Positions 7,069 through 43,523 of a stretch of 64,000 nt of DNA are shown here, in pieces (positions within the stretch are counted from its first letter, which is position 1; each line of letters starts with the position of its first letter). The notes beneath the pieces are model-generated. The model worked only from the letters and a program-made list of their open reading frames with translations. It ran no database searches and was not told where the DNA came from. The translations under genes and the position numbers were made by a program. Source of the DNA: a virus (Duplodnaviria; Heunggongvirae; Uroviricota; Caudoviricetes). The stretch is from the IMG/VR virus record IMGVR_UViG_2519899835_000003; one strand, given 5' to 3'.

Positions 7069-10000
7069 TTAATCCACTCCCACTTTTTTGTTGTACTCGC
7101 GGTTAAACCGATCCACGGCAACCTTCATATCCCGCTCTACCGATTTCACCATCGCCGCCTGCTGCGCCAGACTGAGAGAACTGTCGGCATAAATGGCATC
7201 GCGCTGTTTGCGCAAATCCTTCAGTCTCTTCCGGGTATCCTGCATAAGCCCGTTCATCAACAATTTTCCGTTGTTCTCGTCAATGAACGCCGTTCTTTCT
7301 GCACCGGTCAGACTCTTCAGCTCTGCGTGATACTGCGCAACCTCTGTCATCCGGTCGTACATCTTCTGCTGGTCTGCATACGGCATCACCTCACCCGAAA
7401 TTTTCCCCAGGAAGGGCACCTGCTGTTCCGGTATATCAATACCATTCAGCGATTTCACCGCCGCATCCGTGGTTTTGGAAATGAAGCGCCCTGTCCCTCC
7501 GGAGATATAGTCAATCCAGAATTTCAGCGATTCCGGTGTGATATCCACCGCGCCGGGACGATACTGGCTGCCACCTGAGAACGCATTCAGCCAGAATGCA
7601 AACGCCTTGTACGCTTCTGGCGTTGAACGTCTTCCCAGCTGGCTGTCAGGTTTTGGTGTACCAAACGGCATGTTCTCCTGGTAAATCTGCGCCCCCATGA
7701 AGTTTTCGTTCATGGAAAGATTCGCAAACGGACGCAGAATTGTCGGTGCTGCATTTTTCAGCAATGCCCCCGACAACGTTTCCGACGTCTCGCTGCCGAT
7801 CGGGCTGAATGCCCCCAGGATACCGCCGACAACATTACCGGCAGCACGTGAAGCAGTCAGGTCGCCCGCTGCCACACCTTCAGCTGTATGACCAAGCAGG
7901 AAGAACACGTTGTACCCGTAAGGCAGAGGAATACTCCAGTACTCACCGGCCTTGCCCCCGAACATCGATTTCATGATGACGAGGTTACGCTCTTTCACAT
8001 GAGACGGTACTTTGTCGTACCAGTTAACCCCGTCATCATCCTCACCCGCCACACTGCGGTTAAGCGAGCCAAGCAGATAACCCGCTCCCACAGCTGCAAG
8101 CACGATTTTCTGCGGTACATTGAGATTCTTCCAGCGAAGGCGCTCCAGTAACGGCCCGTCGCCATTAAGATGTCCGAGCGTTCTCACCAGGTTTGCGGTC
8201 CCCTGAATGCTGGCGTTGGCAAACATGTACAGCGAGTTCATCAGCATCCCCTGCTCACCACGACGGTTAAAGTTCACCGTCATGTTTTTGGCAAGAGACG
8301 CCGCCTGCTGGCGTGACAAACCGGCATCACGGGCGTGTTTATAGGCAGAAAGACGCAGAGCGTTTTCAACCGCGCCGTTGGCATCCTCGACCAGGTTCAG
8401 GAACGAATGCCATGCACCGATACTCTGGCCTTTCCATCCGCCCTTCGCCAGCGACACAAGGCGATCCATTTCCTTCTGCTGGCCCTCAAGGTCACCCATG
8501 TTAAACCAGCCGGTTTTACCTCCGTCCTCAACAAACTCTTTCCACACTTTCTGCCACTGTGCGCCTTTGCCCGTGAGGGTTTTACCCCGCAGACTTGCGT
8601 ATACGGCTGACATGGCGGAACGGCTGTCTTTCACCACAGCCAGCGCGGATAAGTTATCCAGCTCTTTCAGTTTACCGTCGCTCCTTCCCTGCTCAGCCTT
8701 CAGGTTCATCACCGCAGTCTGCACGTCACGGATGAAGTTACTGACCAGAAATTCCGGGTTATACGACGTGTTCACCGTTGCCAGGAAGCGGTTAACTTTC
8801 CCCAGCGTACGGATTACGGCGTTACTGGTTTCCGGCCCCATGTTCTTCATCGCACGCATCAGGCGCGGATCATGAAGTTTAATGTAGTAAGTTTTGCCGT
8901 CCTTTTTGGTGGTGAAGTAGCGATCCGCCATCATTGCCATCGGCACAGGGCGCTCGACAACTTCGCGAATGGTTTCACCAGTTTCCTGGTCCTTGCGCTC
9001 TGCAATCACACGCATTGTATCCGGTCTGTCATCAGTGAATACCTGCCAGTAATCCTTGTCGGGATTATCCTGTACCAGTTTCAGGAAGGCGTTACCCACT
9101 TCATTTTTGCGATTGCGGATCAGCGATTCACTCAAATCCTGTATCGCCTGAGTGGAAGGAGACTGTGCGCGGGATGCACGCCCCATGGCCTGCTTACTTT
9201 CACGCCCGCCGATGGTGAATCCCTTGCCTGTACGTGGCTGTGACACCACACCGTCAACATCCTGCCCTTTCAGGGGGACGTAGTAACGGTAGGCTTTCTG
9301 CCAGGCATCCACCACGCCGCTCTCTTCCAGTCCTGCCTCACGGATAATCTCACGGCGACGGGCCAGCATATCGTCAATAATCCCTGCCAGACGGTCATAC
9401 TGTGCCTGTTTGCCGCTGTTACGCACACGCTGCATGATTTCCGTCGCTTCCGCGTTGGTCATCCCCGAACCGCCGTCCGGCATTTTCGGGTTGATTTTCG
9501 CAATATGCACGTTACGTTCCGGCGCGTGACGGGCGTAGAGGTACTCATCCAGATCGGCCTGCGCAATTTTGTAGTCCGCCAGCAATTTGGCCAGCGGCTG
9601 AACGTAGCGCTCCTTCATTACGTTCAGGTCGTTTTCCGCCTTCCCGTGGAAGAGTTCTTCAGCCATATAGGCGTTATTGCTGTCATCTATTTTTCCGCCA
9701 GTTTTACGGATATTCTCCTGCACCGCCTTCAGCACCTGGAATTTATCCTGCATCTGGCGAACAAAACGGGATGCAATTGTCTCTTCCGGCGTCAGACTGC
9801 TGGTGCGGGAGTAATACGGCCCCTTGCGAATATCTTCAGGATAGAGTATTTTATCAACAGAGCCGCGATAAGAATGTTCCCCTTTGGGCAATTGGAGCCC
9901 TCTGTGCAGAAGGTTATCGCGGCTTAATTTTTCTCTCCGGTACAACGTTAAACCGGTCATTTCCATACTCTTCAGTTTTTTCCCGTTTTCCGTACCGTAA

Positions 10001-13000
10001 ACAGATGCCACCTTGTTGATTTCCAGGCGCGACCGGACAGCCTTCATGTGTACCGCTGACACCACCGGATCACCATTTTTATCCACGGCATCAAGCAGCA
10101 TCACAACCGCGTTTCTTTCTGTCGCGGAACGGTAAATTGCATCCGGATCGTGCATCAGTTCCGGTAGTCTCTCGATAACATCCATCGGCACCACATGTTT
10201 CACACCATTGGTGGCCTTACGCACAGTGTCGCGGGAGATAACCAGCGGCAAATCTGGTGCGCCAAGGTGACGCAATACCGGCGGCGTACGCCCGATGTTT
10301 ACCGTTAAATCCGTTGAGCGCAGAGACTTCATCATTCTGGCAAGGTCATCACGATAACGCTCGCCCTCACCTTCCGGCACTTTGAACGGATCAGGCTTAC
10401 CGCTACGGGAGTACTGAGACGATGCGTCCGCGCCATCCTCACGCGGCGTGTAACCTTCCCGCACACGCTGGCCTAACGTGCGAATAGTTTCGCGAACAAG
10501 TCTGATATCGTTCAGTTCCGTCGGCTTCAGTAACCCCGTACGACGCAGTACCCCTTTGACCAGGGCAACAACACGCTCCCATGCCGCCACGAATTTAATC
10601 GGCTGCTTCTCTGCCATATGCGCCAGAAATTCACCCGCCTGCACTTCCGGTGATTCCTTACCATAAGACGCATCAACCTTACGCCAGGCTTCACGGATGG
10701 TGGCGTTATCACTGTCACGGGTTTTCAGCACGGTCTTAATAATCGTCTGATATTCCGCTGGCGTGACTACATGCTCCATTGCATGGTGAATAATCTCGTG
10801 ACGTAACTTCTCGCGAACGGTCCGCCCGTCAGGGATGTTATCCGCCACCAGGACAATTTCACGTTTATCCGGACGATAGAACGCGTGCACCTTGCCGTAA
10901 CCGTCGAATGATTCACCCGCCAGTGCTTCAGCCTCTTTCTGTGACTTCACCACGCGGACCTTCAGGTCACTGTCCTTAATGCCACTAATCACGCCACGGG
11001 CAACAGCTTCAACCTGCGGGACCGGACTGCCTTTGGCTTCCGCACTACGGTTAACATCCGAAATCAGATTGCCTTCAGGTGTGCGGGTCACGCCCTTACG
11101 GGAATAAAACGCAACTCCCTTGTCCGTCTCACGGGTTTTCAGTGTTCGGAACAAGTGATCGAATGCCTCACGAATACCGCCATCCAGTTCTGCATTCGTC
11201 GGATAAGCGTAGGTGTCCGGCTGTCCATGGTCATCCGCCTTACGGATATTGACCAGATAATCATTCTCCACGCCAGCCATACGCGCTTTATCCTGAACAT
11301 AACGCTCAAAGGCTCGCGCCGCCATTTCAACATCCGTTGACCAGTACGGTTTTGAACGAACGCCATCCAGGCGTTCAGAACGACGCAACATGTCACTGCT
11401 GTTAATGGCTTTCATCACGCCTTTAAACGCGTCGTAAACCTCCTGACGTACCGGATATTCCGCATCAACATACCTGCCGTCTTTAAATACGCGCACGGCA
11501 CGCTGTGCTTCCGTCATATAGTCGCCACCTGACGTGATCTTCCCGTCAGTGGAAACATCATAACGACCAAAATAATTATCCAGTGAATGGAACCATTCGT
11601 GGGCCAGCGCCCCCGGTCCGTTACCTTTTGTCAGGTTGATTGCCACCTCACCCGGCTCATAGTGTGCCGCCGCCTTACCCTTACCACGGGCACCAAAAGC
11701 AAGCCCAAGACGACCGTTCAGAGAAAGCGCTTTTGTCGGCACGTTCAGCACGTCAGCCAGGTCATGCAGCGAGTCATAAGCCCGGTTCAAATCAGCCTGA
11801 CGACGCGGACTTTCCACATAATTACCAAACTGCACACCACGAAAACCAAACGCATCACTGAACTGCTCCGGCGAAACATCCCCCTTGCGGCGTTCTGGTC
11901 CGGTACGATCGCGGTTGGTGGCGTTACGCTGCTCCTCACGCGAGACTTCACGCAGCGCCTTCACCTGATTAACCAGCTCATCACGATGTGTGCGCACATA
12001 ATCATGTGCATCACGGGCAGACTCAAAACCGCCCTTCAGTTTCTGCCTGTTTTTGCCATAACCGATAAAAATGTCGCCACTGGCCTTATGCCGGTACACG
12101 TCAAAGGTTATTCTGTCATCAGCAGAGGTTGCTGGCGTTTCCCTTTCTCTGGAGCCTTGTTCATCGAAATATGCTTTCGCCTTTTTCAGTAACTCATCCC
12201 GGCTTTCCGAGAAAAAGAGGTCGCGCCCCTTGCTATCACGAAGCGAATACATCATTTGCGGCGGATCGTAACGTTTTCCCCCGACAAACGAATAAACACC
12301 GGACCTGACACGATAGCCGGATGCTTTATCAATCTGCAATGCAGAAAGCGTACGGAGCAGTTTCCAGGTATCCGACATGCTCCGTAACCCCGGCTTACTG
12401 TCCATCATATCAGCCAGTTTCGCTGCCGGAATTTTCCCCTCCAGCATACCGGCAGTAGCTTCGCGACCGCTTTTAACAATGCTGATCCATTTCTGCATGT
12501 TACGGCTTGTTCTGGTGGGAATTTCACTGCGATACAACGCCATCATTGCCAGCGTGTCACTATCCACACCTTCTTTTTCCAGACGGGCATAATCCGGCTT
12601 TGGAAACAGTTTGCTCAGTGGTTGTGTCGCGTACTCCCCATCCTCCAGCGTTTTACCCATAGCTTCAGCAAGCTGCGCATAACGGTGTTTTGCCGCGCCC
12701 TTAATCTCCTCGCCAAAGTCTTCAATTTTCGCACCACGCACCTGCTGGTGAGTGCTCGGTTTATCTACCGGCACCGGCACCTCAGTATCCGGAACATCGG
12801 TTATGGTCTGGCGATTATCCCCGGTCTGTCTGCGTGCTTCTGCCTGCTGTGCCAGTTCCGGAAGGGAGTCACGAACCATACGAGGGAGTGATTCAGGCTG
12901 TGGCATATCAACCCCACGCTGACTTTCAGGTGCAGGAAGTCCTTCACGCACTGGTGCTGTGGCGTTCTGCTCATCCGGTGACGGCAGACCACGACGAACT

Positions 13001-15420
13001 GTTTCGCCCTCCAGTATTTCCCCCTGGCGACCAGCGGCATTTTCCGGTGCCTGCGCACGTCCTTTCTGGAAACTCTGGCCCTTCACCTCACCGGTTGTGG
13101 TAAAACGACCACCACGTCCGGCCTGATTTTCATCCGGCGTACGCGCCACTTCTCCTGGTAACGGATATCCCTGTCCGGGATGAATATCGCCGGGAGCGGG
13201 AAGGCGTGGACGCTCAGTTAACTCCTGTGCTGTCGGACCGGCATCACCTTCAGCCATCTGGGAACGCACCAGTTCTTCCGCCGTCGGCGCGTTGCCACGG
13301 GCAAGACGGGCCTGCACTTCTGTATCATCCCCCGTAAAACCACGGAATCGCGGGTCACGCATGAACGCGGGCTGTTCCATCGGATCAGCATCAGTAATAC
13401 GCTCTCCGTCAGCCAGAGTGTTAATGGTCTCCGTTGCCACATCTTCAGAGAACGCAGGATTATCCATTTCAACGGCATACTGATTCTCGCCTTTCTTCAC
13501 TACGGACGGTTTCAGGCCGGTGGCGCTGGCATTGCGGAAAACGTCGCTCCCCAGAGCACTTTTTTCATCCGTGAAATAACGGTTGTCCGGACGCACCTTT
13601 TCAATGCGTTCTGCTGGTCTGGACGCACCACTCTCGTTAATTTCAATACGAACTTCATCCGGATCGCGGAACCGCACCGTCGGGTAAATACTCCCGTCGC
13701 CATCATCCGCATTTTCCGGCTGTGGCTGTGCCTCCGGTCTGGCCTCCCGCTGAGGGCGAAGCACATCACGTATTGCCTGTAACTGCTGCTCTTCAGTATC
13801 AGTACGCCCTTCCTTCTGGCTGAGTTTTCGGTATTCCTCAAGCAGTTCAGGGCGCGGCTTCGCCTTCAGCTCATCCATCACCGCCTGTCGCTTCGCCTGT
13901 TCATCCAGTTCATTCAACAGCTGGCTGGCGGCTTCCCGGCGATGAACGGCAGACGTGTCTCCCTCATGTGCCATATCCGCATCAGCATACTGTTCCAGAA
14001 GCTGCTCGCGATTCATCCCCTGCATAGATTCACGATGCTGTGCCACCGGATCAACCGGTTCGGGTTGCGGAGCCGATTCGTCCTGAGGAACGCTTTCAGC
14101 CTCACGCATGGCTGCTTCATCTGCCGCCTGACGTTTTCCACGATATCCGGCAGCCGCACCGAATGGTGCCCCCATTGCAGCACCAAGGGCTGCACCTTCG
14201 ATCGTTGCGTCAGCCACGCCCTCCCACGGTGACACATCCATTCCGGCGGTCTCACGCAATGCCGTGTTTTCCTGATAGCGTGAATAGCCACCCTGCGCCG
14301 CATTAATCGTCCCCTGTTCCGTGGCATTTCTGACAATGCCGCTTTTAACGGTCTTCGCCGTGCCCCGCATCGCCAGATTAAGCAACTGAGCATCGCCCAG
14401 TTTTGCCGCCATGGCATTCACAGCCAGCAATTCAGGATCGGTTGCCAGTTGCGCACGCACCTCATCGGCAACACGCTCTTTTGCCAGGTCCATTTTCTGG
14501 CGGTCAGTAAGCTGCGCGTGCTGCGGATCTGCATCAATTGACAAAAAGGTCTGCTGAAATTTCGGTGACTTCGCCAGCTCAGAATAATCCGCGTTAAGAA
14601 CAGCATCTGCCGCTGCCATTGCACTCCGCCCTTGCGCACTGACAGTGGAATGGGTGATCAGGCCTGCCTGGAAAAAATCCGGCATTTTTTTATCGACAGC
14701 TTCGGCTGCCAGTGCTGTGGCTCTTTCCGGCTGCATCCCTACCGCGATGTATTTTTTCTCCAGCCCGGCGGTCAGCACTTTTCGCAGAGTGACATCACCC
14801 AGCTTTTTAGTCACACCGCCTGCAACCATATCCGGTACAAGCGCACCAATCAGGTTAACCCCTTTCGCTACCCAGACCGCTGAATCATCATATCCTTCAG
14901 TCATCGGTGTATTCAGCGCCCGCTGCGCCCCCGGCGACATCTTGCCAGTCAGCCATTCATCCGAGGCTTTAGCGCCGCCACTGACTGCCTTGCCTGTGAC
15001 CTTCAGACCTTTACCGACAGTATCAGTAACCGCATTTTTTCCATCAGGCAGAGTGTCGATGACCTCATCCGCCCCCTTGCTGCCACCGACAAAAATATCC
15101 TGAACAGTTGCTACTCCCGGCAGCCCCATACGGCTGAACTCATTTAAAATACGTGCCCCTGTTTTTACCGGGCTCTGAATCATCGCATCACCGAGTCCAC
15201 GGGCCATTTCCCCTGTCCCCCGGACGGACTGGGCGACACCTTTCCCCATAGTTGGCAATACATCGCCCAGGCTGAACGACGTGCTGTTGTCCTTCCAGCG
15301 ATTGGGATCGGAGAAAAACACATCATAGCTGTCAGTCTCTCCCGGCTGCTGAATGTTCAGGCTGTTGCGGCTCTGGTTGCCAAATTGCGCTTCAGGGCGC
15401 TGTTCATCGGAATAAGCCAT
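7069..15420 (-). CDS. Giant multidomain virion protein (2,783 aa) with two HExxH zincin-like motifs; probable injected internal/ejection protein
   Basis: Single uninterrupted 8,352-bp ORF with ATG start, last gene of the minus-strand virion module. Contains ALAHEWFHSLD (about 11,590-11,600) and LRHEIIHHAMEH (about 10,775-10,800). Confidence 0.8.
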   Translation of the reverse strand: MAYSDEQRPEAQFGNQSRNSLNIQQPGETDSYDVFFSDPNRWKDNSTSFSLGDVLPTMGKGVAQSVRGTGEMARGLGDAMIQSPVKTGARILNEFSRMGLPGVATVQDIFVGGSKGADEVIDTLPDGKNAVTDTVGKGLKVTGKAVSGGAKASDEWLTGKMSPGAQRALNTPMTEGYDDSAVWVAKGVNLIGALVPDMVAGGVTKKLGDVTLRKVLTAGLEKKYIAVGMQPERATALAAEAVDKKMPDFFQAGLITHSTVSAQGRSAMAAADAVLNADYSELAKSPKFQQTFLSIDADPQHAQLTDRQKMDLAKERVADEVRAQLATDPELLAVNAMAAKLGDAQLLNLAMRGTAKTVKSGIVRNATEQGTINAAQGGYSRYQENTALRETAGMDVSPWEGVADATIEGAALGAAMGAPFGAAAGYRGKRQAADEAAMREAESVPQDESAPQPEPVDPVAQHRESMQGMNREQLLEQYADADMAHEGDTSAVHRREAASQLLNELDEQAKRQAVMDELKAKPRPELLEEYRKLSQKEGRTDTEEQQLQAIRDVLRPQREARPEAQPQPENADDGDGSIYPTVRFRDPDEVRIEINESGASRPAERIEKVRPDNRYFTDEKSALGSDVFRNASATGLKPSVVKKGENQYAVEMDNPAFSEDVATETINTLADGERITDADPMEQPAFMRDPRFRGFTGDDTEVQARLARGNAPTAEELVRSQMAEGDAGPTAQELTERPRLPAPGDIHPGQGYPLPGEVARTPDENQAGRGGRFTTTGEVKGQSFQKGRAQAPENAAGRQGEILEGETVRRGLPSPDEQNATAPVREGLPAPESQRGVDMPQPESLPRMVRDSLPELAQQAEARRQTGDNRQTITDVPDTEVPVPVDKPSTHQQVRGAKIEDFGEEIKGAAKHRYAQLAEAMGKTLEDGEYATQPLSKLFPKPDYARLEKEGVDSDTLAMMALYRSEIPTRTSRNMQKWISIVKSGREATAGMLEGKIPAAKLADMMDSKPGLRSMSDTWKLLRTLSALQIDKASGYRVRSGVYSFVGGKRYDPPQMMYSLRDSKGRDLFFSESRDELLKKAKAYFDEQGSRERETPATSADDRITFDVYRHKASGDIFIGYGKNRQKLKGGFESARDAHDYVRTHRDELVNQVKALREVSREEQRNATNRDRTGPERRKGDVSPEQFSDAFGFRGVQFGNYVESPRRQADLNRAYDSLHDLADVLNVPTKALSLNGRLGLAFGARGKGKAAAHYEPGEVAINLTKGNGPGALAHEWFHSLDNYFGRYDVSTDGKITSGGDYMTEAQRAVRVFKDGRYVDAEYPVRQEVYDAFKGVMKAINSSDMLRRSERLDGVRSKPYWSTDVEMAARAFERYVQDKARMAGVENDYLVNIRKADDHGQPDTYAYPTNAELDGGIREAFDHLFRTLKTRETDKGVAFYSRKGVTRTPEGNLISDVNRSAEAKGSPVPQVEAVARGVISGIKDSDLKVRVVKSQKEAEALAGESFDGYGKVHAFYRPDKREIVLVADNIPDGRTVREKLRHEIIHHAMEHVVTPAEYQTIIKTVLKTRDSDNATIREAWRKVDASYGKESPEVQAGEFLAHMAEKQPIKFVAAWERVVALVKGVLRRTGLLKPTELNDIRLVRETIRTLGQRVREGYTPREDGADASSQYSRSGKPDPFKVPEGEGERYRDDLARMMKSLRSTDLTVNIGRTPPVLRHLGAPDLPLVISRDTVRKATNGVKHVVPMDVIERLPELMHDPDAIYRSATERNAVVMLLDAVDKNGDPVVSAVHMKAVRSRLEINKVASVYGTENGKKLKSMEMTGLTLYRREKLSRDNLLHRGLQLPKGEHSYRGSVDKILYPEDIRKGPYYSRTSSLTPEETIASRFVRQMQDKFQVLKAVQENIRKTGGKIDDSNNAYMAEELFHGKAENDLNVMKERYVQPLAKLLADYKIAQADLDEYLYARHAPERNVHIAKINPKMPDGGSGMTNAEATEIMQRVRNSGKQAQYDRLAGIIDDMLARRREIIREAGLEESGVVDAWQKAYRYYVPLKGQDVDGVVSQPRTGKGFTIGGRESKQAMGRASRAQSPSTQAIQDLSESLIRNRKNEVGNAFLKLVQDNPDKDYWQVFTDDRPDTMRVIAERKDQETGETIREVVERPVPMAMMADRYFTTKKDGKTYYIKLHDPRLMRAMKNMGPETSNAVIRTLGKVNRFLATVNTSYNPEFLVSNFIRDVQTAVMNLKAEQGRSDGKLKELDNLSALAVVKDSRSAMSAVYASLRGKTLTGKGAQWQKVWKEFVEDGGKTGWFNMGDLEGQQKEMDRLVSLAKGGWKGQSIGAWHSFLNLVEDANGAVENALRLSAYKHARDAGLSRQQAASLAKNMTVNFNRRGEQGMLMNSLYMFANASIQGTANLVRTLGHLNGDGPLLERLRWKNLNVPQKIVLAAVGAGYLLGSLNRSVAGEDDDGVNWYDKVPSHVKERNLVIMKSMFGGKAGEYWSIPLPYGYNVFFLLGHTAEGVAAGDLTASRAAGNVVGGILGAFSPIGSETSETLSGALLKNAAPTILRPFANLSMNENFMGAQIYQENMPFGTPKPDSQLGRRSTPEAYKAFAFWLNAFSGGSQYRPGAVDITPESLKFWIDYISGGTGRFISKTTDAAVKSLNGIDIPEQQVPFLGKISGEVMPYADQQKMYDRMTEVAQYHAELKSLTGAERTAFIDENNGKLLMNGLMQDTRKRLKDLRKQRDAIYADSSLSLAQQAAMVKSVERDMKVAVDRFNREYNKKVGVD

Positions 15421-20798: not shown

Positions 20799-22067
20799 TC
20801 AGCGTAATCTGCCTATGCGAACAGCCAGTCGTCCATTCTGATCATAAACCTCAATTTTATCATTGCGGATCACCAGTCCTACATTCTGATTAGAGTAACG
20901 AATTGTCAGTTGCCCTTGTGACGTAACACTGAAAAGGCCTCCAATATTCAGGTTACCCTGAGAATCAACCTGAAAGTTTCCGTTCTGAATAACGGCACTC
21001 CGGATAACTGGCGAAGTGATACTTACCCCAGCTTTTACCTCATCCGCCACAACCTTCCGCGACACCAGTGTTTCAATCACCGCGTCATAAATCATCGCTT
21101 TCGGGATCACTACCTTGCCACCTGATACCGCAAACGGATAGGCTGTGTTATCCGGATTATTCGGGTCAAAGACAAACAACTGCGACGCAGAAATTGCAAC
21201 CTGACTTACAGGCCTGCCTTCACTGTCTTTTCCGGCGACAATCCCGATCCCCGCAGTGATACCATCAACTCCCGCTTTTTTTGACCACATCGCAAGGAAC
21301 GCCTCACCGCCTTCTTTATCCAGTTTAGTGATGCGCTTGTCGACCTCATTAAGCGATTCACTGGTTGACGAATCCAGTGTGCTAATGCGGGTTTCAATAC
21401 CACCAATCGTTCTTGTCGTTTCTTCCCTGAGAGTCCCCACAACTTCGGTTGTCTTAATTGCAGCATCCTTTACAGCCTGCCCCTGCGCGTTTTTTATTTC
21501 TTTACGCAGCTCGGACACAACCGGCGACTTTGCAGCCTCATCGCGGATCTGGTCAATGATGGCCTTCACGCCGATCTGTGTTTGTGCCTGAGTGCCTTTT
21601 TCAGCATTCCATGGACCTTTCACTCCTGCCGCGTTAACAAAACGTATCCAGTAAAATCCCGACCAGCCAGGGTCAACCGGATCGCCGTAAACCTGCCCCG
21701 GCGTCGTGGCAACCAGCACTGCATCAGCAAGGTCATCCTCCGTACCCCGCCAGATTTCAGTCAGTGAATGTCCGCGATAATTAGGCATATCCCATTCAAG
21801 AAGAACCGAGCCAAATCCTCCTGTCGCCTTAAAATTCAGCGGTTTTGTGGGAAAATCAACAGTCATTAAAGTACTGTCAATCTCAATACCCGGATTCAGT
21901 GCATATGAGGCACCACCCTGTGTACGACGTCGGGCAAGTTTAAGGCCAACCAGCTCTTCACGGGTCACAAAAGCATGACGACCGTCGCCACGCTGCCCGG
22001 TGCCAATTTCCATATTTTCCACAACAGCGGATAAATCCTTCCCCGCCCGCCACGGTTTTTTGCTCAT
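20799..22067 (-). CDS. Tail tip / host-specificity protein with lambda J-like C-terminal region
   Basis: PTKPLNFKATGGFGSVLLEWDMPNY fibronectin-III-like segment and ...KIEVYDQNGRLAVRIGRLR ending recalled as typical of J-family C-termini. Confidence 0.55.
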   Translation of the reverse strand: MSKKPWRAGKDLSAVVENMEIGTGQRGDGRHAFVTREELVGLKLARRRTQGGASYALNPGIEIDSTLMTVDFPTKPLNFKATGGFGSVLLEWDMPNYRGHSLTEIWRGTEDDLADAVLVATTPGQVYGDPVDPGWSGFYWIRFVNAAGVKGPWNAEKGTQAQTQIGVKAIIDQIRDEAAKSPVVSELRKEIKNAQGQAVKDAAIKTTEVVGTLREETTRTIGGIETRISTLDSSTSESLNEVDKRITKLDKEGGEAFLAMWSKKAGVDGITAGIGIVAGKDSEGRPVSQVAISASQLFVFDPNNPDNTAYPFAVSGGKVVIPKAMIYDAVIETLVSRKVVADEVKAGVSITSPVIRSAVIQNGNFQVDSQGNLNIGGLFSVTSQGQLTIRYSNQNVGLVIRNDKIEVYDQNGRLAVRIGRLR

Positions 22068-23689
22068 ATCGGTAACTCCGACATCGATGTACTCAGGGTT
22101 ATTCGTTCCACCTGCCCAAATCCGGATACCATCACCTGCCAGTTTTGCCCGGTTGCTGCCGGAAGTCTCACCACACTTCCCTTAAACGTACCCGGCGCAA
22201 AATGAATAACAGGAACATCATCAGCCATAACGGTGATCCCCACCCGCTCAGGTGCTGGAGATTTCACCCTGATACAGGAAAAAGAGGTTCTTTCAGGCAA
22301 TGAAAAAATTTTTGAATGCCACCTTATCGTGGACGGCAGAGAGCCCCCGGCAAGCACTGACATTTTGTCTCCTGTCACCACGCGCATCATATCTTTTGCG
22401 AGATCAACCCATGCGCAGTCAAACGGTGTACTGAGATAGCGGATATCCATGTTCACCGGGTTGAAGACAAACACATCCTGCTTACCATCAGGTTTCGTGT
22501 AACAGGCAATGTACTCACCACGCCATGAGTAAGCCACAATGGACGACGGATTAAACTGACTCTGCCACTGTTCTGGTGAAATGATTTTTTCCGTTACCAC
22601 GGCTGTACTGCCGCCTGCATCAACCGATACCAGGCCATTTGTTCCTGCATACAGCACGAATCCCTCCATCGCCACCATACTTCTTCGGCTCAGGCATGCC
22701 TGCATGGAAGGGATTTTGGAACCAGAAATTGTGGACGGTGATACCCCACTGAACAAATAAGGCTCCCCCTTTGTCGCCACCACCAGTGACGTTCCCAGCG
22801 GACAGATAGCCACAATATCTTCTGCCGTCGTGTGACGATTCACTTCCGGCCATGCATACGGCAGATACGCTTCCGAAAACATCACTTCATTACCGGCAAA
22901 CCCGGCGGCAATACCATTAGCCATCAGGCAAAGGCCTGTCATATTCTCTGGCGGCGGCAGGTAATCCCATGTCGCCAGGGAAGGCCCAAGGTTTTTCGCC
23001 GGTATTTTGTCCGTGTAACTGAGCACGGATGCATCCAGTTCAGCCACAAGTAAAAAATCCGCCTCCCCTCCACCTGATGCAGAGCGATAAATCCGGCGAC
23101 GTTTAATACTGGCATTCTGCAATGGTACCGGAGCCAGCGCCAGTTGTACCGCAGTTCCCGGAGTACGGAGTGTTACCTCCAGAGACGCCGGACCTGGCGG
23201 ACCTTCTTCACCATAATCTGAGACAAAGGTTTCCGTATAAAACCGGGTTTCATCATCATTCGGGTTATCGTCAGAAACATCACCGCCCTGCTGGACAGTA
23301 CAGACAGGAGCTGTCGTCGGCGCGGGGATCCCAAGACGATACGATGATGTCGGGTGATTCCCGTCCCCTTTTGTGGCAATAGTCGCATCCGTCACTTTAG
23401 GAAAACGCCCGTCAGTGTAGTAAATACGCCCGTGGGGGTCCTGAGCGATCGGACTGCGGATCACATCCACCACATCCGGCCATGCAAACCAGAAATCGTC
23501 ACGGTAATGAAAAATTGTTTTTGGCTTAATTGTGAATGTTTTCTCAACCCCGGATATCTGACGTTCTGGTGTAATAACACCAAACCGGAAATGGCAGTCC
23601 TCCGCCAGTACAGCGGAATGCTCGGACAGCATGGATGTCACAACGCGCGGCATCATCCCACGCATCGTGGTGATATCGATATAGGGCAT
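22064..23689 (-). CDS. Tail protein (541 aa from internal ATG with AAGGAA RBS)
   Basis: Overlaps the downstream J-like gene by 4 bp; start set at MPYIDITT, the first ATG with a ribosome-binding site. Confidence 0.45.
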   Translation of the reverse strand: MPYIDITTMRGMMPRVVTSMLSEHSAVLAEDCHFRFGVITPERQISGVEKTFTIKPKTIFHYRDDFWFAWPDVVDVIRSPIAQDPHGRIYYTDGRFPKVTDATIATKGDGNHPTSSYRLGIPAPTTAPVCTVQQGGDVSDDNPNDDETRFYTETFVSDYGEEGPPGPASLEVTLRTPGTAVQLALAPVPLQNASIKRRRIYRSASGGGEADFLLVAELDASVLSYTDKIPAKNLGPSLATWDYLPPPENMTGLCLMANGIAAGFAGNEVMFSEAYLPYAWPEVNRHTTAEDIVAICPLGTSLVVATKGEPYLFSGVSPSTISGSKIPSMQACLSRRSMVAMEGFVLYAGTNGLVSVDAGGSTAVVTEKIISPEQWQSQFNPSSIVAYSWRGEYIACYTKPDGKQDVFVFNPVNMDIRYLSTPFDCAWVDLAKDMMRVVTGDKMSVLAGGSLPSTIRWHSKIFSLPERTSFSCIRVKSPAPERVGITVMADDVPVIHFAPGTFKGSVVRLPAATGQNWQVMVSGFGQVERITLSTSMSELPI

Positions 23690-24029
23690 AGAAATTCCTT
23701 TGACTGCTTCAGGCTTAAAAATCAGGGGATTTATGATGGAATTCGCTAAAATCGCGATCGGTATCACTGCAACAGAGTGTTGCTATGATATTCTGGGCAA
23801 GACGTAACAACTCACTAATTGTTATCAAACTTCTTTCTTCTGGTCGGGGAGCATGTTGCTCCCCTTTTTATTGCATCATTACGGCAGCCACTGCACAGAG
23901 CGTTACCACTGCACCCAGCCACACAAAAATCTCCTGCTGTGTAGTGCTTCTTTACGTATTTCAGATTTGCCTGTTTCATGACAATTTATCAATTAGCATT
24001 AGCTAAACATTTTATACATAGTATACGAT

Positions 24030-24263
24030 TTACATTATTTGAGAGCAGGTTGTGCTGTCAAATGCTCCAGCTCCAACCCAACGCCAGTTGTAGTGATGCC
24101 CTGCATGATACAATTTATACTTCCCGCTTTTCTTAATCCCATAAATTGGCATTATAGTTTCTTCCCCACCTAAATATGCTTTACCATGGCAAAGCGGAGT
24201 TGGCAAAGATTTGCAACCAGATAATAATATCAATACAGCTAAAACACATTTGTACATTATCAA
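24030..24263 (-). CDS. Small lipoprotein (77 aa)
   Basis: Signal peptide with lipobox LLSGC (MIMYKCVLAVLILLSGCKS...); sits between the tail-fibre genes and the tail protein gene. Confidence 0.55.
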   Translation of the reverse strand: MIMYKCVLAVLILLSGCKSLPTPLCHGKAYLGGEETIMPIYGIKKSGKYKLYHAGHHYNWRWVGAGAFDSTTCSQIM

Positions 24264-24269
24264 CTCCTT

Positions 24270-24815
24270 CTAAACCTTATAAACAGATATAGTTTTTCCG
24301 TTTTGATTAAAGAGCCAGTTTTTAGAAACTATTGCACTATAATGCCGAGTATTGTTTGCAAATGATAATGGTGTGAATGAGATATTGGTTCCATCAAATG
24401 ATAGAGTAAAGTTTTGATTAGGCCCGTTCGTTAAGCCCAGATACATCTTGGTAGAGTCTTGCGTTTGAGAAAGATGCGTAATTGAACAACCTAACAACGA
24501 ACCATTTATTGAACCAGCCGGATTTTGTGTTTGCACACGGCTGGAAACGGCAGAGCCAGCACCTGTCGTTGTTGAGTTATTAGAATACCCTCCATAGTTA
24601 TTGTTTACAGGAACAATTTGTATATTTGTTGCCTGAACTAAAACAACAAAATTTGAACGACCTACAGTGATAGAAAAGTCCTGTACACTTTTCCCAACCA
24701 TTTGCGACATATAAAACGGTGTACTTAGCTTAAGTTTGGCACCTGCCGATTTCATTGACCTTTCACCAGTTACACTAACGGCAGAGGAGCCAACCCATCC
24801 GGAAGCAACCCCCAT
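24270..24815 (-). CDS. Hypothetical tail-fibre-associated protein (181 aa)
   Basis: S/T/N-rich ORF directly downstream of the collagen-repeat tail fibre gene. Confidence 0.4.
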   Translation of the reverse strand: MGVASGWVGSSAVSVTGERSMKSAGAKLKLSTPFYMSQMVGKSVQDFSITVGRSNFVVLVQATNIQIVPVNNNYGGYSNNSTTTGAGSAVSSRVQTQNPAGSINGSLLGCSITHLSQTQDSTKMYLGLTNGPNQNFTLSFDGTNISFTPLSFANNTRHYSAIVSKNWLFNQNGKTISVYKV

Positions 24816-24897: not shown

Positions 24898-27543
24898 TTA
24901 TTTCTCTTTAAGGTCGCTAATCTCTTTACGCAGATTTTTTATTCCTTCAACTAACAGTGCAATAACACCATTATAATTTAATCGAAATCTCTCTTCACCA
25001 GATATGATATCTGTATCAGATGTAACTAACTCTGGTTGAGCCTTTAACGCATCCTGTGCAAATAATCCCACAGATTGTTGCCAACTGCCATCAGCATTCT
25101 GTATTTCATACAAATAACCCGTTAGCAAGTCAAGCTTCTCCAGACAATTATCTATTCGTATTGCATTTCGCTTGTTGCGTTTATCCGAACGGATCTGAAC
25201 ATCGTTAAATGAGCCGTTTCCGGTCACCGTCAAATTGCCATTAATACCACCATTAAAAGTTTGTGCCTGAGTCCATGTATTGGCAGTAGTAAGCAGTTCT
25301 GTTCCTTGCCCGGGGGCTCCTGTGTCTCCCTTCGGTCCCTGCGGCCCTTCCGGACCTGCTGGACCTGCTACTCCCGGATCACCTTTATCGCCTTTCGGCC
25401 CCGGCGCACCTGCCGGACCTGCTGGTCCAGCCACCCCCGGATCGCCTTTGTCACCTTTTGGCCCCTGTGCGCCTGCCGGGCCTGCGGCTCCCGTATCCCC
25501 TTTCGGTCCCTGTGGCCCCGCCGGACCTGCTGGTCCAGCCACCCCCGGATCGCCTTTGTCACCTTTTGGTCCCTGTGCGCCTGCCGGGCCTGCAGCTCCC
25601 GTATCCCCTTTAGGTCCCTGCGGTCCTGCCGGGCCTGCGGCTCCCGTATCCCCTTTAGGTCCCTGCGGTCCTGCCGGGCCTGCGGCTCCCGTATCCCCTT
25701 TAGGTCCCTGCGGTCCTGCCGGGCCTGCGGCTCCCGTATCCCCTTTCGGTCCCTGTGGCCCCGCCGGACCTGCTGGTCCAGCCACCCCCGGATCGCCTTT
25801 GTCACCTTTTGGCCCCTGTGCGCCTGCCGGGCCTGCGGCTCCCGTATCCCCTTTCGGTCCCTGTGGCCCCGCCGGACCTGCTGGTCCAGCCACCCCCGGA
25901 TCGCCTTTGTCACCTTTTGGCCCCTGTGCGCCTGCCGGGCCTGCGGCTCCCGTATCCCCTTTCGGTCCCTGTGGCCCCGCCGGACCTGCTGGTCCAGCCA
26001 CCCCCGGATCGCCTTTGTCACCTTTTGGCCCCTGTGCGCCTGCCGGGCCTGCGGCTCCCGTATCCCCTTTCGGTCCCTGTGGCCCCGCCGGACCTGCTGG
26101 TCCAGCCACCCCCGGATCGCCTTTGTCACCTTTTGGCCCCTGTGCGCCTGCCGGGCCTGCGGCTCCCGTATCCCCTTTCGGTCCCTGTGGGCCTGCCGGA
26201 CCCGTATCGCCCTTGTCTCCCTTCGGGCCGGGAACGCCACCACCTGCAGCAACCTCTTCTGCCTTCTGTCTCGCCGCCTTGGCCTCATCCATTGCCGCCT
26301 TCACAGCCTTCGACGTGGCAGCCTTTGTTTCGTCATTACTGGCAGTATCACTACTTAGCTGCACAATTCCCTTCTGTGCCGTCGTCGCGTCCACCACATT
26401 TGCTGCGCTGCCCGCCGGACCAGGCTCCCCGCGGGGGCCCTGCGGCCCAGCTTCGCCTCGTTCACCTTTCGGACCTGCCGGACCTGTCGCACCGGCATCT
26501 CCTTTCGGTCCCTGCGGCCCCGCCGGGCCTCTCTCTCCTGCAGGTCCGCGTAGCCCCTGCTCTCCCTGAGGCCCTCGTTCTCCCGGCTCACCTTTTTCAC
26601 CTGCGGGACCGGCTGGTCCGGTGTCACCTTTAGGTCCTGCATCACCTTTCGGCCCGGGTGGTCCCCCCGGGTCTCCGGGGGCTCCTTTTTCACCTCTGGC
26701 CCCGGTTTCACCTCGTGGACCAGCAGGCCCCTGAATCCCCCGCTCTCCTTGCGGCCCCACCGGTCCTGTTTCACCGCGTGGTCCTTGTGCGCCTTGTGGA
26801 CCTGTTTCTCCACGAGGGCCTGCATCACCTTTCGGTCCGGTATCACCTTTAGGGCCTCTGGCATTCTCTGCCATACGCCTGGCCTCTTCAGCACTAACCG
26901 TAGCAGCCTCAGCACGTTTAAGAACGTCTCCGGCGGCCTCATGAGCCACTCTGGCGGTTTCAGCATGTTGTCTGGCATCATTCGCGTCTGCTGCCGCGGC
27001 CTTTTCAGACTCGCATGCCCGGGTCGCCGCTTCTGCAGCTTCACTGGCTTTTTGTCCGGCTTCAGCCGCCCTGCTGGTTGCCGTCTTTGCACTGTCAGAT
27101 GCACTCTTCGCACTGGCTGCTGCACTGTCTTTTGACTGTGTGGCCTGAGTGTTTTTTGTCGCCGTGTCTTCATTCAGGCGACGAATAGTGGCAAGGTCAT
27201 CAGCCACATTATTCTGTATCTGCCGGAAATCTGTCAGCAGTTCTCCGGGTATGCTAACCTCAACAAGACTGCGGCGTAACAGCATATTGAGCGTCACCGT
27301 ACTTTCGGTCCCCTCAATACGCACACGTCCGTAGACAGCAGTCTTCCCTTTCACCGTCACCGAAACCGCATACTCCCCCGGATCCATCGTCATTCCGTAA
27401 TATCCACCTTCACGGGTCACTGCCGACGCACTGGTGCCGCTGAGCGCATCCGGTGAAACTGTCAGCGCCGTCAGGGTAATATTTGCTCCTGATATCGCCT
27501 CACCATCAGGAGATTTCAGCGTCCCCGAAACAACAACACTCAC
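24898..27543 (-). CDS. Side tail fibre with collagen-like Gly-X-Y repeats and C-terminal intramolecular chaperone-type domain
   Basis: 881 aa; two long GXY blocks ([36 protein letters not shown] repeated); C-terminus ...[27 protein letters not shown] resembles the auto-cleaving chaperone of tail fibres/endosialidases. Confidence 0.8.
25250..26250. repeat. Tandem near-identical 108-bp (36-codon) and shorter 45-bp units inside the tail-fibre gene (approximate bounds)
   Basis: DNA lines from about 25,430 to 26,200 repeat almost exactly; the supplied six-frame track shows long artefactual ORFs on both strands here. Confidence 0.8.
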
Positions 27544-28190
27544 ACTCCACCTCCGTTAAACACTTTTTTACGGGCAGACAATGCACTGTCTGCCCCCTGT
27601 TTGATCCCAAGTTGCTCAACAAAACTCTGATAATGCTGCGCAGCCAGCCCCGATTCTGCGCCACCGGCAGCATCCTTACTGAAAGCGCGAAACAACATCC
27701 AGTCCACCAGTGGGTTAACATAAGCATCTTCCAGTGGAACTGGCGTATCATCGTCCTGCGTCAGAACATACACTGCCTCCGGTATCCGGCTTACCACTGC
27801 ATCAATACTTATCTCTTTGTCAGGGACAGGAAACAGCCAGAATACGCGCGGGGACAGGTCGTTGCTGATAAAACATTCAGGAATGCCCTTCACTGTGAGC
27901 CACTCAGGATACTGCGCATCCAGCACCTCCCGGGATAATGGTCTGACTGCACTACCGTCACTGAGGCATATCACGTCAAGAAGTTGTATTACACCATCGG
28001 GCAAAACCTGACGGGCGCCCGGAACACAACTGATTGTTTCCAGGCTTGCGCCAGCATCCGGTCTCGCCAGAATCACTGCCCTCACAGCATCATTGTAATA
28101 ATCGCACAATTCCTGCAGGGACCAGCGAACCATCATCGGGTCAACCAGTTGTGTATTCACACGTCCGATGATTTCTGTAATCGTCGTCAT
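27540..28190 (-). CDS. Virion structural protein (possible head-tail adaptor)
   Basis: Position between capsid genes and tail fibre; 4-bp overlap with tail fibre start. Confidence 0.4.
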
Positions 28191-40222: not shown

Positions 40223-42133
40223 TTATGCGGCTGCTCCAGCTTTGTTTGCTTTAACTTCCACCGTATCAATAAGTACAGGGTAGGTTTCTGCACTACCTGT
40301 AATATCCGTAATGACAAACCTGTTGAGTCCATTAGCAGTATTGGCCCATTTCACCAGGTCAAACGCCTGTCCATCCACACCATCGAGCACCGGAGTAACA
40401 TTAATGCTGTTACTGCCCTTAAATTTAAATGCAAGCGTATGCCAGTCATGGTCGAATGCGCCAAACGTGCCAAGTTCTTTTTGTTGATTAACTGTATGAT
40501 GGTATGCAACATTAATACTGGCTTTATCTGTCTGGACAAAGAAAGAACTCAGATGGCCTTCACCACCCTCACCCGGCCATTCCGCTATTCGCCAGTACAA
40601 ACCAAAGGCATACTTGTTTCTGGTTGTCTCAAGATTGACGTTTTCGGGGATTTTAAACCGGACAGCAATTTCCCCGCCTTTTTCCAGTAAAAGTTTTGCC
40701 TTGTCTGCAGCAATATCACAGTACATTGACCAGGATTTCGCGCTGTTATTTTTCTCAATTCGCAGAGCTTTATTGCCGCTGTCATCAACCAGTGTGCGTC
40801 TGCCATACATACCGTCCCAGCCATAAGGTTTCAGCTGATTGTCTGTAGCTTTTTTGGCATCGTAAAAAATTACAGACTCTGAGGTGGTAACCGGCCTGTC
40901 TGGAACAACCACCCCGGCAGTACCATTAACAAACGCAGAAGACTTACCCGCGCAGCTCAGAATCGCCGTTGCCAGACGGTCGGAAATAATCCCACGGCGA
41001 GCCCATGAACTGAAATGGCTCGCCCTGTCCTGTGACGTCCAGGTGGCTGAGCTGTCACGCCATTTCGAACCGTAATATCCGATACCCGGAATGTCCGGGT
41101 CTTCTTCCGGTTTGTTCGTCGGCACATTCACCCCGTTCTCATCCGTCATGAACGGTACGAAATGGATATTCTTTTCCGTTTTATTTTTATAGCTGCCGTA
41201 CACCGTCTGGTACGTGGATTCGTTCTTCTGCTTCCAGAAATACGTCGTGTCCCCGCATATCCAGGGAACACCGCCAGCAGAGCCACCGACGCACTGGCCT
41301 GCCATATCCGCCAGGTCTGCACGGAATTTATCAACCAGCGCACCAAACTGTGCGGCATGATTTGCCGGCGTACCGCCAAAATCAAATTCCCCCTGCATCC
41401 ACACCACGGCAAACAGCACATTTTTCGGGTTCTTCTCCAGTGCCGCTTTTGTTCGACCGATAAGGTCCTTATACAGCGGCTTGTCCACACCCCAGCGGGT
41501 TGAATTCTCCGAGGCACCACTCGCGTCACTGTATGTGCCATCAGCTCCGGTGGTGAACGCTGAACCACCACGACAGCACGGAACCAGCAGAATGCCCGCA
41601 TTCGCCGGTATAAACGGCAGCAGTTTTTTGGCGATATGCAGCCCCTGCCCCACGGTTCCGTACTGCCCCTTTGACAGGTCCGCTTTCGGATGGTTAAGAC
41701 GGCTCATGTCCTGCACATCATGCAGACAATGGTCCGCCGGAATGATGTCGTTATATTTGCATGCTGCACCGCCCGGTGTCACCGTACTGCGACGCGCTAA
41801 CTGTTTAATACGTGGATCAGGGCTGTCGAATGTATCCGGTAATGGCAGTCCCTCACCGTATGACATACCATTGGACTGACCAGCAAGCGCGATCACATAG
41901 TAATATTCTGGCGCAACAGAAGGCGCTGAGGTCGTCGGACGGTTGCCTGGCTCCTCTGGTGATGAGATGCTCCCCTCACTCACAACTGGCTGGATGAACT
42001 CCGCACCATAACCAGCTGTCGAAATCAGCGCACTACCATAAGGCTGCCACCCTTCCTTCAGTTTTTGAGTTATTCGTTTCGCAAGGTCTGACGGCGACGC
42101 CGCCCTGACAACATCATAGTGTTTAAATGCCAT
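40223..42133 (-). CDS. NanS-p-type prophage esterase (DUF1737 N-terminal domain + SGNH/SASA 9-O-acetyl sialate esterase domain)
   Basis: N-terminus MAFKHYDVVRAASPSDLAKRITQKLKEGWQPYG and YYYVIALAGQSNGMSYGEG serine-esterase block; position between Q and the lysis genes as in Stx phages. Confidence 0.7.
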   Translation of the reverse strand: MAFKHYDVVRAASPSDLAKRITQKLKEGWQPYGSALISTAGYGAEFIQPVVSEGSISSPEEPGNRPTTSAPSVAPEYYYVIALAGQSNGMSYGEGLPLPDTFDSPDPRIKQLARRSTVTPGGAACKYNDIIPADHCLHDVQDMSRLNHPKADLSKGQYGTVGQGLHIAKKLLPFIPANAGILLVPCCRGGSAFTTGADGTYSDASGASENSTRWGVDKPLYKDLIGRTKAALEKNPKNVLFAVVWMQGEFDFGGTPANHAAQFGALVDKFRADLADMAGQCVGGSAGGVPWICGDTTYFWKQKNESTYQTVYGSYKNKTEKNIHFVPFMTDENGVNVPTNKPEEDPDIPGIGYYGSKWRDSSATWTSQDRASHFSSWARRGIISDRLATAILSCAGKSSAFVNGTAGVVVPDRPVTTSESVIFYDAKKATDNQLKPYGWDGMYGRRTLVDDSGNKALRIEKNNSAKSWSMYCDIAADKAKLLLEKGGEIAVRFKIPENVNLETTRNKYAFGLYWRIAEWPGEGGEGHLSSFFVQTDKASINVAYHHTVNQQKELGTFGAFDHDWHTLAFKFKGSNSINVTPVLDGVDGQAFDLVKWANTANGLNRFVITDITGSAETYPVLIDTVEVKANKAGAAA

Positions 42134-42898: not shown

Positions 42899-43333
42899 TT
42901 ACGATCGTAAACTATTTTTTCGCTGATAAAATACAGAGGTTCTCCCTCCCGGCAATTCACGCTCAACATACCGATCCATCTCAAGCCTCACTCCCAGCAT
43001 CATCAGCATGCCTTCAACAATCCCCTCCGCTTTGTGAAGGCGTTTACCTATACAGGTGTCAGAGCACCCATGTTTCCGTGCCAGCGCCATGAACGTCTCC
43101 CCCAACACGTAGTAATCAACCAGCAAGTCATGCAGATCGCGATTGTTCCGGTAAAGGCGGGCTATGCACCCGCATATCACCATCGCATCATCGTCACAGC
43201 ACTGTGGACGTGATTTTACTTTTTCGGGGATCAGTCCCTTAAATCCGGCAGCAATGGGCGACCATGTAACATCCTCATAGTTATTTACCGCCCATGCCCC
43301 CCAGCGCTCAAGAACCTGCCGGATATCACGCAT
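42899..43333 (-). CDS. Late-gene antiterminator Q (DLP12 QuuD-like)
   Basis: [34 protein letters not shown]...[16 protein letters not shown] matches the QuuD-type Q family; start set at internal ATG overlapping ninH. Confidence 0.75.
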
Positions 43334-43523
43334 CAGTATCTTTACCCCATCCGCGATGAACCATAAGGACGCCATTGACGACGGCGTGCTTTTTCGCATC
43401 TTTATCATCAATGTATTTTCTGACTGTAGCACGATTGCAGTTCAGTATTCTGGCGACTTCTGTCTGATTTCCCCTGGTGCAGATCAGTAATTCAGGTATC
43501 GTTTGAATTTTAGCATTCATCAA
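43326..43523 (-). CDS. ninH: NinH-like protein
   Basis: ...[30 protein letters not shown]...[10 protein letters not shown] resembles lambda NinH; directly upstream of Q. Confidence 0.65.

Follow-up and report, generated by a model that had tools for sequence, protein, structure and literature searches.

An expanded collagen-like repeat array in the lateral tail fibre gene of an Escherichia coli podovirus prophage, with a predicted self-cleaving tip and a probable separate adhesin

The stretch of DNA analysed here (the window: 64,000 nucleotides of the IMG/VR virus record IMGVR_UViG_2519899835_000003) carries on its minus strand, at 24898-27543, an open reading frame (ORF) of 881 amino acids (aa) that runs from a GTG start through its stop codon. 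Sequence relationships support this gene as the lateral (side) tail fibre of a phi24B/933W-type podovirus prophage. Most of the second of its two collagen domains is a tandem array of near-identical units, whose copy number varies between isolates. We consider it probable that the locus as a whole specifies a lateral fibre with an amplified collagen spacer, an S74 chaperone domain that releases itself from the fibre, and a separate adhesin docked on the fibre.

Tracts of Gly-X-Y occupy aa 230-295 (22 triplets), 297-380 (28) and 436-747 (104) of the fibre. The last of these is the expanded one, and was dissected as follows:

25303..26238 (minus strand, 936 bp): second collagen domain, aa 436-747, the expanded array; 104 uninterrupted Gly-X-Y triplets, G+C fraction 0.71
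25753..26184 (minus strand): four tandem 108-bp (36-codon) units, identical in DNA (repeat dissection, pattern control)
25618..25752 (minus strand): three tandem 45-bp (15-codon) units with at most 1 mismatch between them (repeat dissection)
25510..25617 (minus strand): a fifth 108-bp unit with 3 mismatches (repeat dissection)
25339..25509 (minus strand): a degenerate 171-bp unit, whose sequence matches the array end of other alleles, e.g. P0002-P0007 (repeat dissection, allele comparison)

An earlier note on this DNA had described near-identical 108-bp (36-codon) repeats with 15-codon variants, and the four identical units and three 45-bp units confirm it; its figure of about 900 bp is a fair one for an 846-bp unit array within a 936-bp tract. 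Tandem Repeats Finder independently reported periods of 108, 45, 54 and 216. The longest exact self-match in the array is 368 bp, while 200 shuffles of the array's own 9-bp Gly-X-Y codon triplets gave a longest self-match of 42 bp (mean 25). The first collagen domain of the same gene has a longest self-match of just 11 bp, and all 50 of its 50 9-mers are distinct, against 34 distinct 9-mers among 104 in the array. The repetition is peculiar to the second tract, far beyond what chance or collagen coding in general produces; elsewhere in the window there is no notable tract of the collagen type. The frame stays open throughout the 936 bp. Composition suits a triple helix, with Pro at 50% of X positions and 17% charged residues, and is compatible with a trimeric one; among such proteins recombinant EPclA collagen is a trimer, the triple helix having been demonstrated for EPclA only (PMC3368898).

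Several ORFs in other frames and on the plus strand also span the array (25261-26633 on the plus strand and 25368-26288 on the minus strand, e.g. 25261-26358 and 25280-26569; 292-429 aa). These are not genes, because they are stop-free by-products of repeated GC-rich codons and homologues were found for the collagen frame only. They could mislead gene callers.

The proposal of the earlier note that the array expands and contracts in frame between isolates is borne out by near-identical alleles carrying 0, 1 or 2 long units. The allele of strain NCCP15648 has 2 long units and 671 aa; it is 630 bp shorter than that of the window, with the difference wholly inside the array, and of the 1,800 bp of flanking sequence the first 1,359 bp show a single base difference and the last 441 bp none. 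The O104:H4-type allele (9 complete genomes) has 1 long unit and 635 aa, and a third allele, P0001, has 0 long units, 599 aa and a slightly different chaperone. A second allele family, from O111 strains and their relatives, has another collagen sequence, for the most part without repeats; it comes in lengths of 754, 673 and 652 aa, set apart by a tandem duplication of 81 aa and an insertion or deletion of 21 aa, both in frame. Of the 28 genomes listed for this family, 8 gave a match span of 3533 bp, 17 one of 3290 bp and 1 one of 3227 bp, and 2 carried an IS600 insertion. That prophage collagen domains vary in length by multiples of three residues was already known (Ghosh et al. 2012, PMC3368898).

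Some further rearrangements were seen. In the O111-type strain 2013C-3277 (NZ_CP027331.1, NZ_CP074868.1) the orthologous fibre gene is split by IS600, with a match span of 4557 bp against 3290-3533 bp in other strains. Fibre modules have also been exchanged between phage types: (i) P0049, from Shigella boydii, joins a lambda-type side-tail-fibre N-terminus to the same collagen unit, tip and chaperone; (ii) P0002 (845 aa) has the window-type N-terminus with an inserted globular domain; (iii) P0034 (901 aa) has the window-type N-terminus with an unrelated non-collagen distal part. Individual E. coli genomes contain up to 25 places matching the fibre region.

The proximal part of the gene identifies it as a fibre. 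Its features, together with the gene upstream, are:

24898..27543 (minus strand): lateral tail fibre gene (ORF call, Pfam, PHROG, phi24B identity)
27540..28190 (minus strand): tail adaptor gene, SU10_adaptor family (Pfam; 97% identity to its phi24B counterpart)
27244..27543 (minus strand): N-terminal anchor, aa 1-~100, a CarboxypepD_reg / phage_tail_N beta-sandwich predicted to bind the adaptor ring (Pfam, gp61 identity, preprint cited below)
26857..27243 (minus strand): Ala/Glu/Lys-rich alpha-helical coiled-coil rod, aa ~101-229, the 'PCoil' of Ghosh et al. 2012 (sequence, PMC3368898, same preprint)
26404..26856 (minus strand): first collagen domain, aa 230-380, 22 + 28 Gly-X-Y triplets (sequence)
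26260..26385 (minus strand): Phage_fiber_2 repeat, aa 387-428, a non-collagen break between the collagen domains (Pfam PF03406, E 1.8e-14)

Residues 1-176 are essentially identical to phi24B gp61 ('tsps', annotated as a 645-aa 'tail spike protein'), and 149 Stx (Shiga toxin) phage records share its N-terminal 131 aa at 99% identity or more. By cryo-electron microscopy gp61 forms six trimeric lateral fibres, whose N-terminal domains bind the adaptor ring gp62 through contacts that include Lys65 and Lys67, and which continue as a coiled coil from residue 100 and then as a long flexible collagen-like shaft (preprint 10.64898/2026.04.10.717836). Both lysines are kept in the window fibre. The homologue in phage Sp5, ORF67, is essential and was located to the tail by immuno-electron microscopy (PMC5155283). 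The description 'tail fibre' in the earlier note therefore stands, because of the gp61-like N-terminus, the adjacent adaptor gene (its product has 97% identity with the phi24B protein encoded just upstream of gp61), the Pfam and PHROG families and the published virion localisation. On the fibre, Pfam detects Collagen (E 1.4e-69) and CarboxypepD_reg above its cut-off; phage_tail_N scores 19.8 bits, under its 26.6-bit cut-off. The PHROGs assignment is phrog_366, 'tail fiber protein'. The fibre start codon shares 4 nt (GTGA) with the stop of the adaptor gene, and GGAGG lies just 5' of it.

With uninterrupted (Gly-X-Y)n tracts flanked by phage-fibre domains (PfN, coiled coil, Pf2) the protein belongs with the EPcl proteins, and its adaptor-binding N-terminus and gene position after the adaptor gene place it as a gp61 orthologue. 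The first collagen domain has one interruption, G-D-P-G-G-P-P-G at aa 290-297, which fits the G-x-P-G-G-P-x-G of EPcl proteins, a motif known from prophage collagen-like proteins (PMC3368898). Toward the other end the kinship with gp61 stops: no part of gp61 aligns to aa 748-881, and the distal module is of a different type. It comprises two parts:

25189..25302 (minus strand): short distal tip, aa 748-785, reaching to the predicted cleavage site; the adhesin is predicted to dock here (alignment to S16 gp37, 6F45_A; motif from PMC7917993)
24901..25188 (minus strand): Peptidase_S74 intramolecular chaperone, aa 786-881, 10.9 kDa, with Ser786/Asp787/Lys791 (Pfam, alignments, profile)

The suggestion that the C-terminus is an intramolecular chaperone, likewise from the earlier note, has held up well at the level of sequence. 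Pfam Peptidase_S74 (PF13884) matches aa 786-841 with 33.4 bits (cut-off 22; E 5.5e-8). The catalytic motif is S786-D-K-R-N-K791, with Ser opening the domain and Lys five residues on; in 148 diverse homologous C-terminal domains Ser is conserved at 96%, Asp at 97% and Lys at 97%. The domain lies no more than 5 residues from the C-terminus in 122 of 147 homologues, and in the window fibre it ends at the stop codon. A 23-sequence profile reaches solved S74 domains, namely S16 gp37 (6F45, E 6.3e-21), the Ralstonia GP4 fibre (8JOV), the MYRF autoprocessing domain (7DC3) and the GA-1 chaperone (3GUD), and the chain of the released GA-1 chaperone in 3GUD starts at the aligned conserved Ser. Since conservation starts just before the cleavage site even across proteins with unrelated upstream parts, the chaperone appears to be a portable module. 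An exhaustive search (E ≤ 0.001) found 8,809 cluster representatives with an S74 domain. By these alignments we infer self-cleavage between Arg785 and Ser786, which would split the full-length 84.5-kDa protein into a 73.6-kDa mature chain and a 10.9-kDa fragment.

Two genes follow the fibre gene, the first of which was overlooked in the earlier note, as was the uniqueness of the window's repeat copy number:

24270..24815 (minus strand): Gp38_N adhesin gene, 181 aa (Pfam PF21721, phrog_1121)
24030-24263 (minus strand): gene for a Cor superinfection-exclusion lipoprotein (phrog_1119, E 2e-33)

The 181-aa protein is probably the receptor-binding subunit. Its aa 1-40 match Gp38_N (PF21721, E 1.1e-19), its PHROG (phrog_1121) is 'tail fiber adhesin', and RefSeq already annotates the adhesin neighbour in phage POCJ13 as 'tail fiber adhesin'. 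G-W-V-G-S-S and P-F-x-M-S are invariant among homologues. The C-terminal domain is confidently predicted as a beta-sandwich and is variable, with homologues 55-88% identical; it gave no solved-fold match and no significant sequence match beyond other small Gp38_N proteins. Outside its own phage group the only phage relatives come from T4-like Klebsiella and Raoultella phages, whose gp38 adhesins are ~29% identical.

The best PDB match of the fibre's C-terminal region is 6F45_A (E 1.4e-11), the gp37 fragment of phage S16 crystallised with its adhesin gp38. The S16 chaperone is cut at DLNVS^SDRRIKK, exposing a docking surface for the gp38 N-terminal domain, and T4-like Yersinia phages carry DVYIR^SD at the same site (PMC7917993). 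The window motif, DVQIR^SD, aligns with DVYIR^SD and DLNVS^SD; by analogy, cleavage probably exposes a docking site for the 181-aa adhesin at the fibre tip. Between the end of the collagen and the cleavage site lie just 38 residues, not enough to form a receptor-binding domain, and the fibre itself therefore reads as a spacer and not as the receptor binder. The order of an S74-ended fibre gene followed by a Gp38_N gene recurs in POCJ13, Stx2-86, the O104:H4 and O111 prophages, and an unrelated Salmonella contig.

On that Salmonella contig (L008 1-5513; Logan SRR1965798) a 1,555-aa Phage_fiber_2 + Peptidase_S74 fibre is followed by two Gp38_N genes, one for a canonical GP38 of 261 aa and the other for a 170-aa protein related to the window adhesin, which suggests alternative adhesins for one fibre. 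The adhesin-cor pair is also kept in POCJ13, Stx2-86, and the O104:H4 and O111 prophages, with cor directly 3' of the adhesin gene. In T1, phi80 and N15, Cor blocks FhuA-dependent phages. Because cor adjoins the adhesin gene, the adhesin receptor might be FhuA; we found nothing specific in the literature tying Cor or FhuA to Stx-phage fibres.

We propose the following arrangement. Three chains would make up each fibre, and six fibres would be attached by their N-terminal beta-sandwich domains to the adaptor ring, as demonstrated for phi24B, whose gp61 has the identical N-terminus (preprint 10.64898/2026.04.10.717836). In the shaft, a coiled coil would lead into two collagen triple helices with the Phage_fiber_2 motif between them. 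The second collagen domain has probably grown to 312 residues by in-frame tandem amplification and reshuffling of the 108-bp and 45-bp units, most likely through unequal homologous recombination, or slipped misalignment during replication, between repeat copies. Perfectly identical 108-bp direct repeats over hundreds of bases are substrates for both processes, and neither would shift the frame, each unit being a multiple of 9 bp long. Exchange between fibre genes of co-resident prophages may also have contributed, and is plausible because the array holds units of other alleles and there are so many matching places per E. coli genome. Judging from its homologues, the S74 chaperone would start the folding of the trimer at the C-terminus and then sever itself at Arg785/Ser786, after which the new C-terminus (...DVQIR) would bind the Gp38_N segment of the 181-aa protein, as in the gp37-gp38 pair of S16/T2. 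The array would then be a length-adjustable flexible spacer that sets the reach of the adhesin, and not a recognition element.

Several observations weigh against this reading. To our knowledge no effect of fibre length on function has been described for this phage group. The adhesin lacks the polyglycine-rich GP38 receptor-binding domain of S16/T2, and its assigned role derives from aa 1-40 and the order of the genes. An AlphaFold2 monomer model of aa 736-881 (13-sequence alignment) was poor, with a pLDDT (predicted local distance difference test) of 50. The phi24B authors do not see the lateral fibre as a likely trigger of DNA release (preprint 10.64898/2026.04.10.717836). The copy number of the array, moreover, comes from one assembly, and the exact 881-aa sequence is absent among ~15 billion proteins; a separate full-length similarity search scored 8,000 word-sharing candidates, which is not a complete census of alleles, and was dominated by compositional matches to eukaryotic collagens and Glaesserella adhesins. 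By contrast, the adjacent adhesin is on at least 771 contigs. An exact pattern of three unit starts spaced 108 bp, which gave 3 matches in the window as control, found no array with at least 3 long units in IMG/VR, JGI metagenomes or GTDB representative genomes. A unit 30-mer occurs in 22 IMG/VR contigs, single in 19 and double at 45-bp spacing in 3, within tracts of 22-58 triplets against 104 in the window.

The copy number in the window is thus a genuine extreme, or else an assembly error accounts for part of it. If the latter, the real number of long units would be about 1-2, as in the nearest relatives, the extra ones arising by mis-assembly or over-extension of a perfect repeat, and the uniqueness of the allele and of its array would then be explained. 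The closest allele, NCCP15648, does differ practically only within the array, the perfect repeats over 368 bp exceed typical short reads, and truncated 'partial' copies are common in databases (11 of 15 matches, several standing for 50-100 sequences), which also lends indirect support to the earlier note's warning that the region is prone to assembly trouble. We nevertheless regard an artefact as unlikely: mis-assembly of short-read repeats normally collapses them and seldom expands them, the array is heterogeneous, with three kinds of unit bearing their own point differences, it ends 3' in the 171-bp unit also present in other alleles (P0002-P0007), and its frame is unbroken over 936 bp. Tandem 45-bp units were also seen independently in other viral contigs, and complete genomes bear out the length polymorphism of the second collagen domain. 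Whatever the exact copy number, the array exists and is polymorphic. Taken as assembled, the fibre has 462 aa of collagen, 312 of them uninterrupted, and its rod would measure ~153 nm, against ~82 nm for the O104:H4 allele and ~80-90 nm for 1- and 2-unit alleles (computed with a rise per residue of 0.29 nm in collagen and 0.15 nm in the coiled coil). The array could further be a contingency locus, in which frequent in-frame gain and loss of 108-bp and 45-bp units, supplied in part perhaps by recombination with fibre genes of co-resident prophages, would yield phage subpopulations with fibres of ~70 to ~150 nm; length would be selected to the thickness of host O-antigen or capsule, and the 104-triplet allele would be an adaptive extreme, neither neutral nor an assembly error. 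This we consider rather unlikely.

Other readings concern what the proteins do. Perhaps the fibre has its own receptor-binding tip, and the 181-aa protein is an assembly chaperone only, like T4 gp38, and absent from the virion. Some Gp38_N proteins are indeed annotated 'distal long tail fiber assembly catalyst', and the 181-aa protein is without the canonical polyglycine domain. However, an S74 chaperone is already built in, which leaves a second one without an obvious role; so short a segment between collagen and cleavage site leaves little room for such a tip; in the solved S16 system Gp38_N docks on the cleaved gp37 tip; and a variable beta-sandwich with homologues as divergent as those of the 181-aa protein is as expected of a receptor binder. 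We judge this reading quite improbable. Least of all do we expect the collagen-like protein to be no virion part but a surface or virulence protein that the prophage supplies to its bacterium, in the manner of streptococcal Scl. Host-interaction roles for prophage collagen-like proteins have been raised (Ghosh et al., PMC3368898), and YadA-like collagen-rich adhesins of Glaesserella are among the compositional matches, but bacterial matches share Gly-X-Y composition only, the fibre sequence has no signal peptide or anchor, its gene sits in the tail module and is translationally coupled to the adaptor gene, and a protein observed in virions has the identical N-terminus.

The fibre read as a lateral spacer has relatives in several known systems, each sharing a different part of it. 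The phi24B/Sp5 fibre has the identical aa 1-176, the order PfN - coiled coil - collagen - Phage_fiber_2 - collagen and the same place directly downstream of the adaptor gene; unlike the window fibre it has 645 aa, with a small globular PfC end followed by an 89-aa PfC-like ORF, it has neither an S74 domain nor a Gp38_N gene, and its second collagen is 114 aa against 312 aa in the window. The 'EPclD' fibres (Ghosh et al. 2012; Stx2-86 gp21, POCJ13 gp56 and that of the O104:H4 phage P13374) share the tip and S74 domain and the downstream adhesin and cor. The collagen of Stx2-86 gp21, 322 aa long, was called 'by far the longest' of these proteins (Ghosh et al. 2012, PMC3368898), and is non-repetitive, whereas the window fibre has 462 aa in total with a 312-aa single tract. 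The O104:H4 and NCCP15648 alleles have the same 36-aa unit at 99% DNA identity, but the O104:H4-type fibres are 635-673 aa with 0-2 long units. S16 (T2-type) gp37-gp38 has a homologous C-terminus, the autocleavage motif Ser-Asp-x-Arg-x-Lys and a Gp38_N adhesin gene next to it; S16 differs in being a myovirus, with a beta-structured fibre without collagen and a gp38 that has the polyglycine-rich GP38 domain. The S74 domains of the K1F endosialidase, GA-1 (3GUD), the T5 L-shaped fibre and MYRF (7DC3) have the same C-terminal position and Ser/Lys dyad; in the classic cases, though, the chaperone folds a triple beta-helix or beta-prism, while that of the window comes 38 residues after a predicted collagen triple helix. 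The combination of collagen with S74 is already common in databases. Comparable repeats occur in receptor-binding or tail proteins of phages of Gram-positive bacteria, in ORF18 of the Streptococcus thermophilus phage DT1 and in the lactococcal BK5-T and P335 phages, whose sequences, virion architecture and hosts are unrelated to those of the window fibre. The number of such Gly-X-Y tandem repeats in tail fibres is said to change spontaneously and in frame, reportedly in work by Duplessis and Moineau in 2001 and by Boyce et al. in 1995.

The surrounding DNA is a short-tailed prophage of the Stx-converting type (Sepvirinae), with best matches to Shigella phage POCJ13, Stx2 phage 86 and O104:H4 phages, and is inserted in an E. 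coli chromosome beside ynfF. It is apparently stx-negative: ~770 bp separate the Q-like antiterminator gene (42899-43432) from the nanS-p-like esterase gene (40223-42133), no stxA- or stxB-sized ORF lies between the two, and a tRNA scan of the whole window found no tRNA gene, including those usual upstream of stx. Elsewhere in the window, a giant ORF of 2,783 aa (7069-15420, minus strand), annotated in related genomes as an LPD38/LPD5 domain protein, corresponds to ORF80 of Sp5 (2,793 aa), a protein that tail formation requires. A 422-aa protein similar to the central tail fibre J (20799-22067, minus strand; phrog_496, phrog_31) and a 567-aa protein (22064-23767, minus strand; phrog_511) correspond by position to the central needle (gp56) and nozzle (gp57) of phi24B. 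The needle, not the lateral fibre, has been proposed as candidate BamA binder (preprint 10.64898/2026.04.10.717836).

Every component described here is already known, i.e. variable-length collagen-like fibres (PMC3368898), the phi24B/Sp5 lateral fibre, S74 chaperones and gp37-gp38 coupling. What is new is one extreme allele and an explicit reading of the fibre of this sub-group as a collagen spacer plus a detachable adhesin of uncharacterised fold, which extends a known pattern and leaves the current view of phage fibres unchanged. The side fibres of Stx-type phages help to determine which E. coli strains can be adsorbed, and hence the spread of the toxin gene. Their length can shift about twofold in frame with anchor and tip untouched, and short-read assemblies are untrustworthy for the fibre gene. 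Receptor binding in this sub-group probably resides in a distinct, exchangeable protein, the 181-aa adhesin, which would attach once the fibre has cleaved itself; typing schemes and predictions of host range are better based on the adhesin gene than on the fibre.

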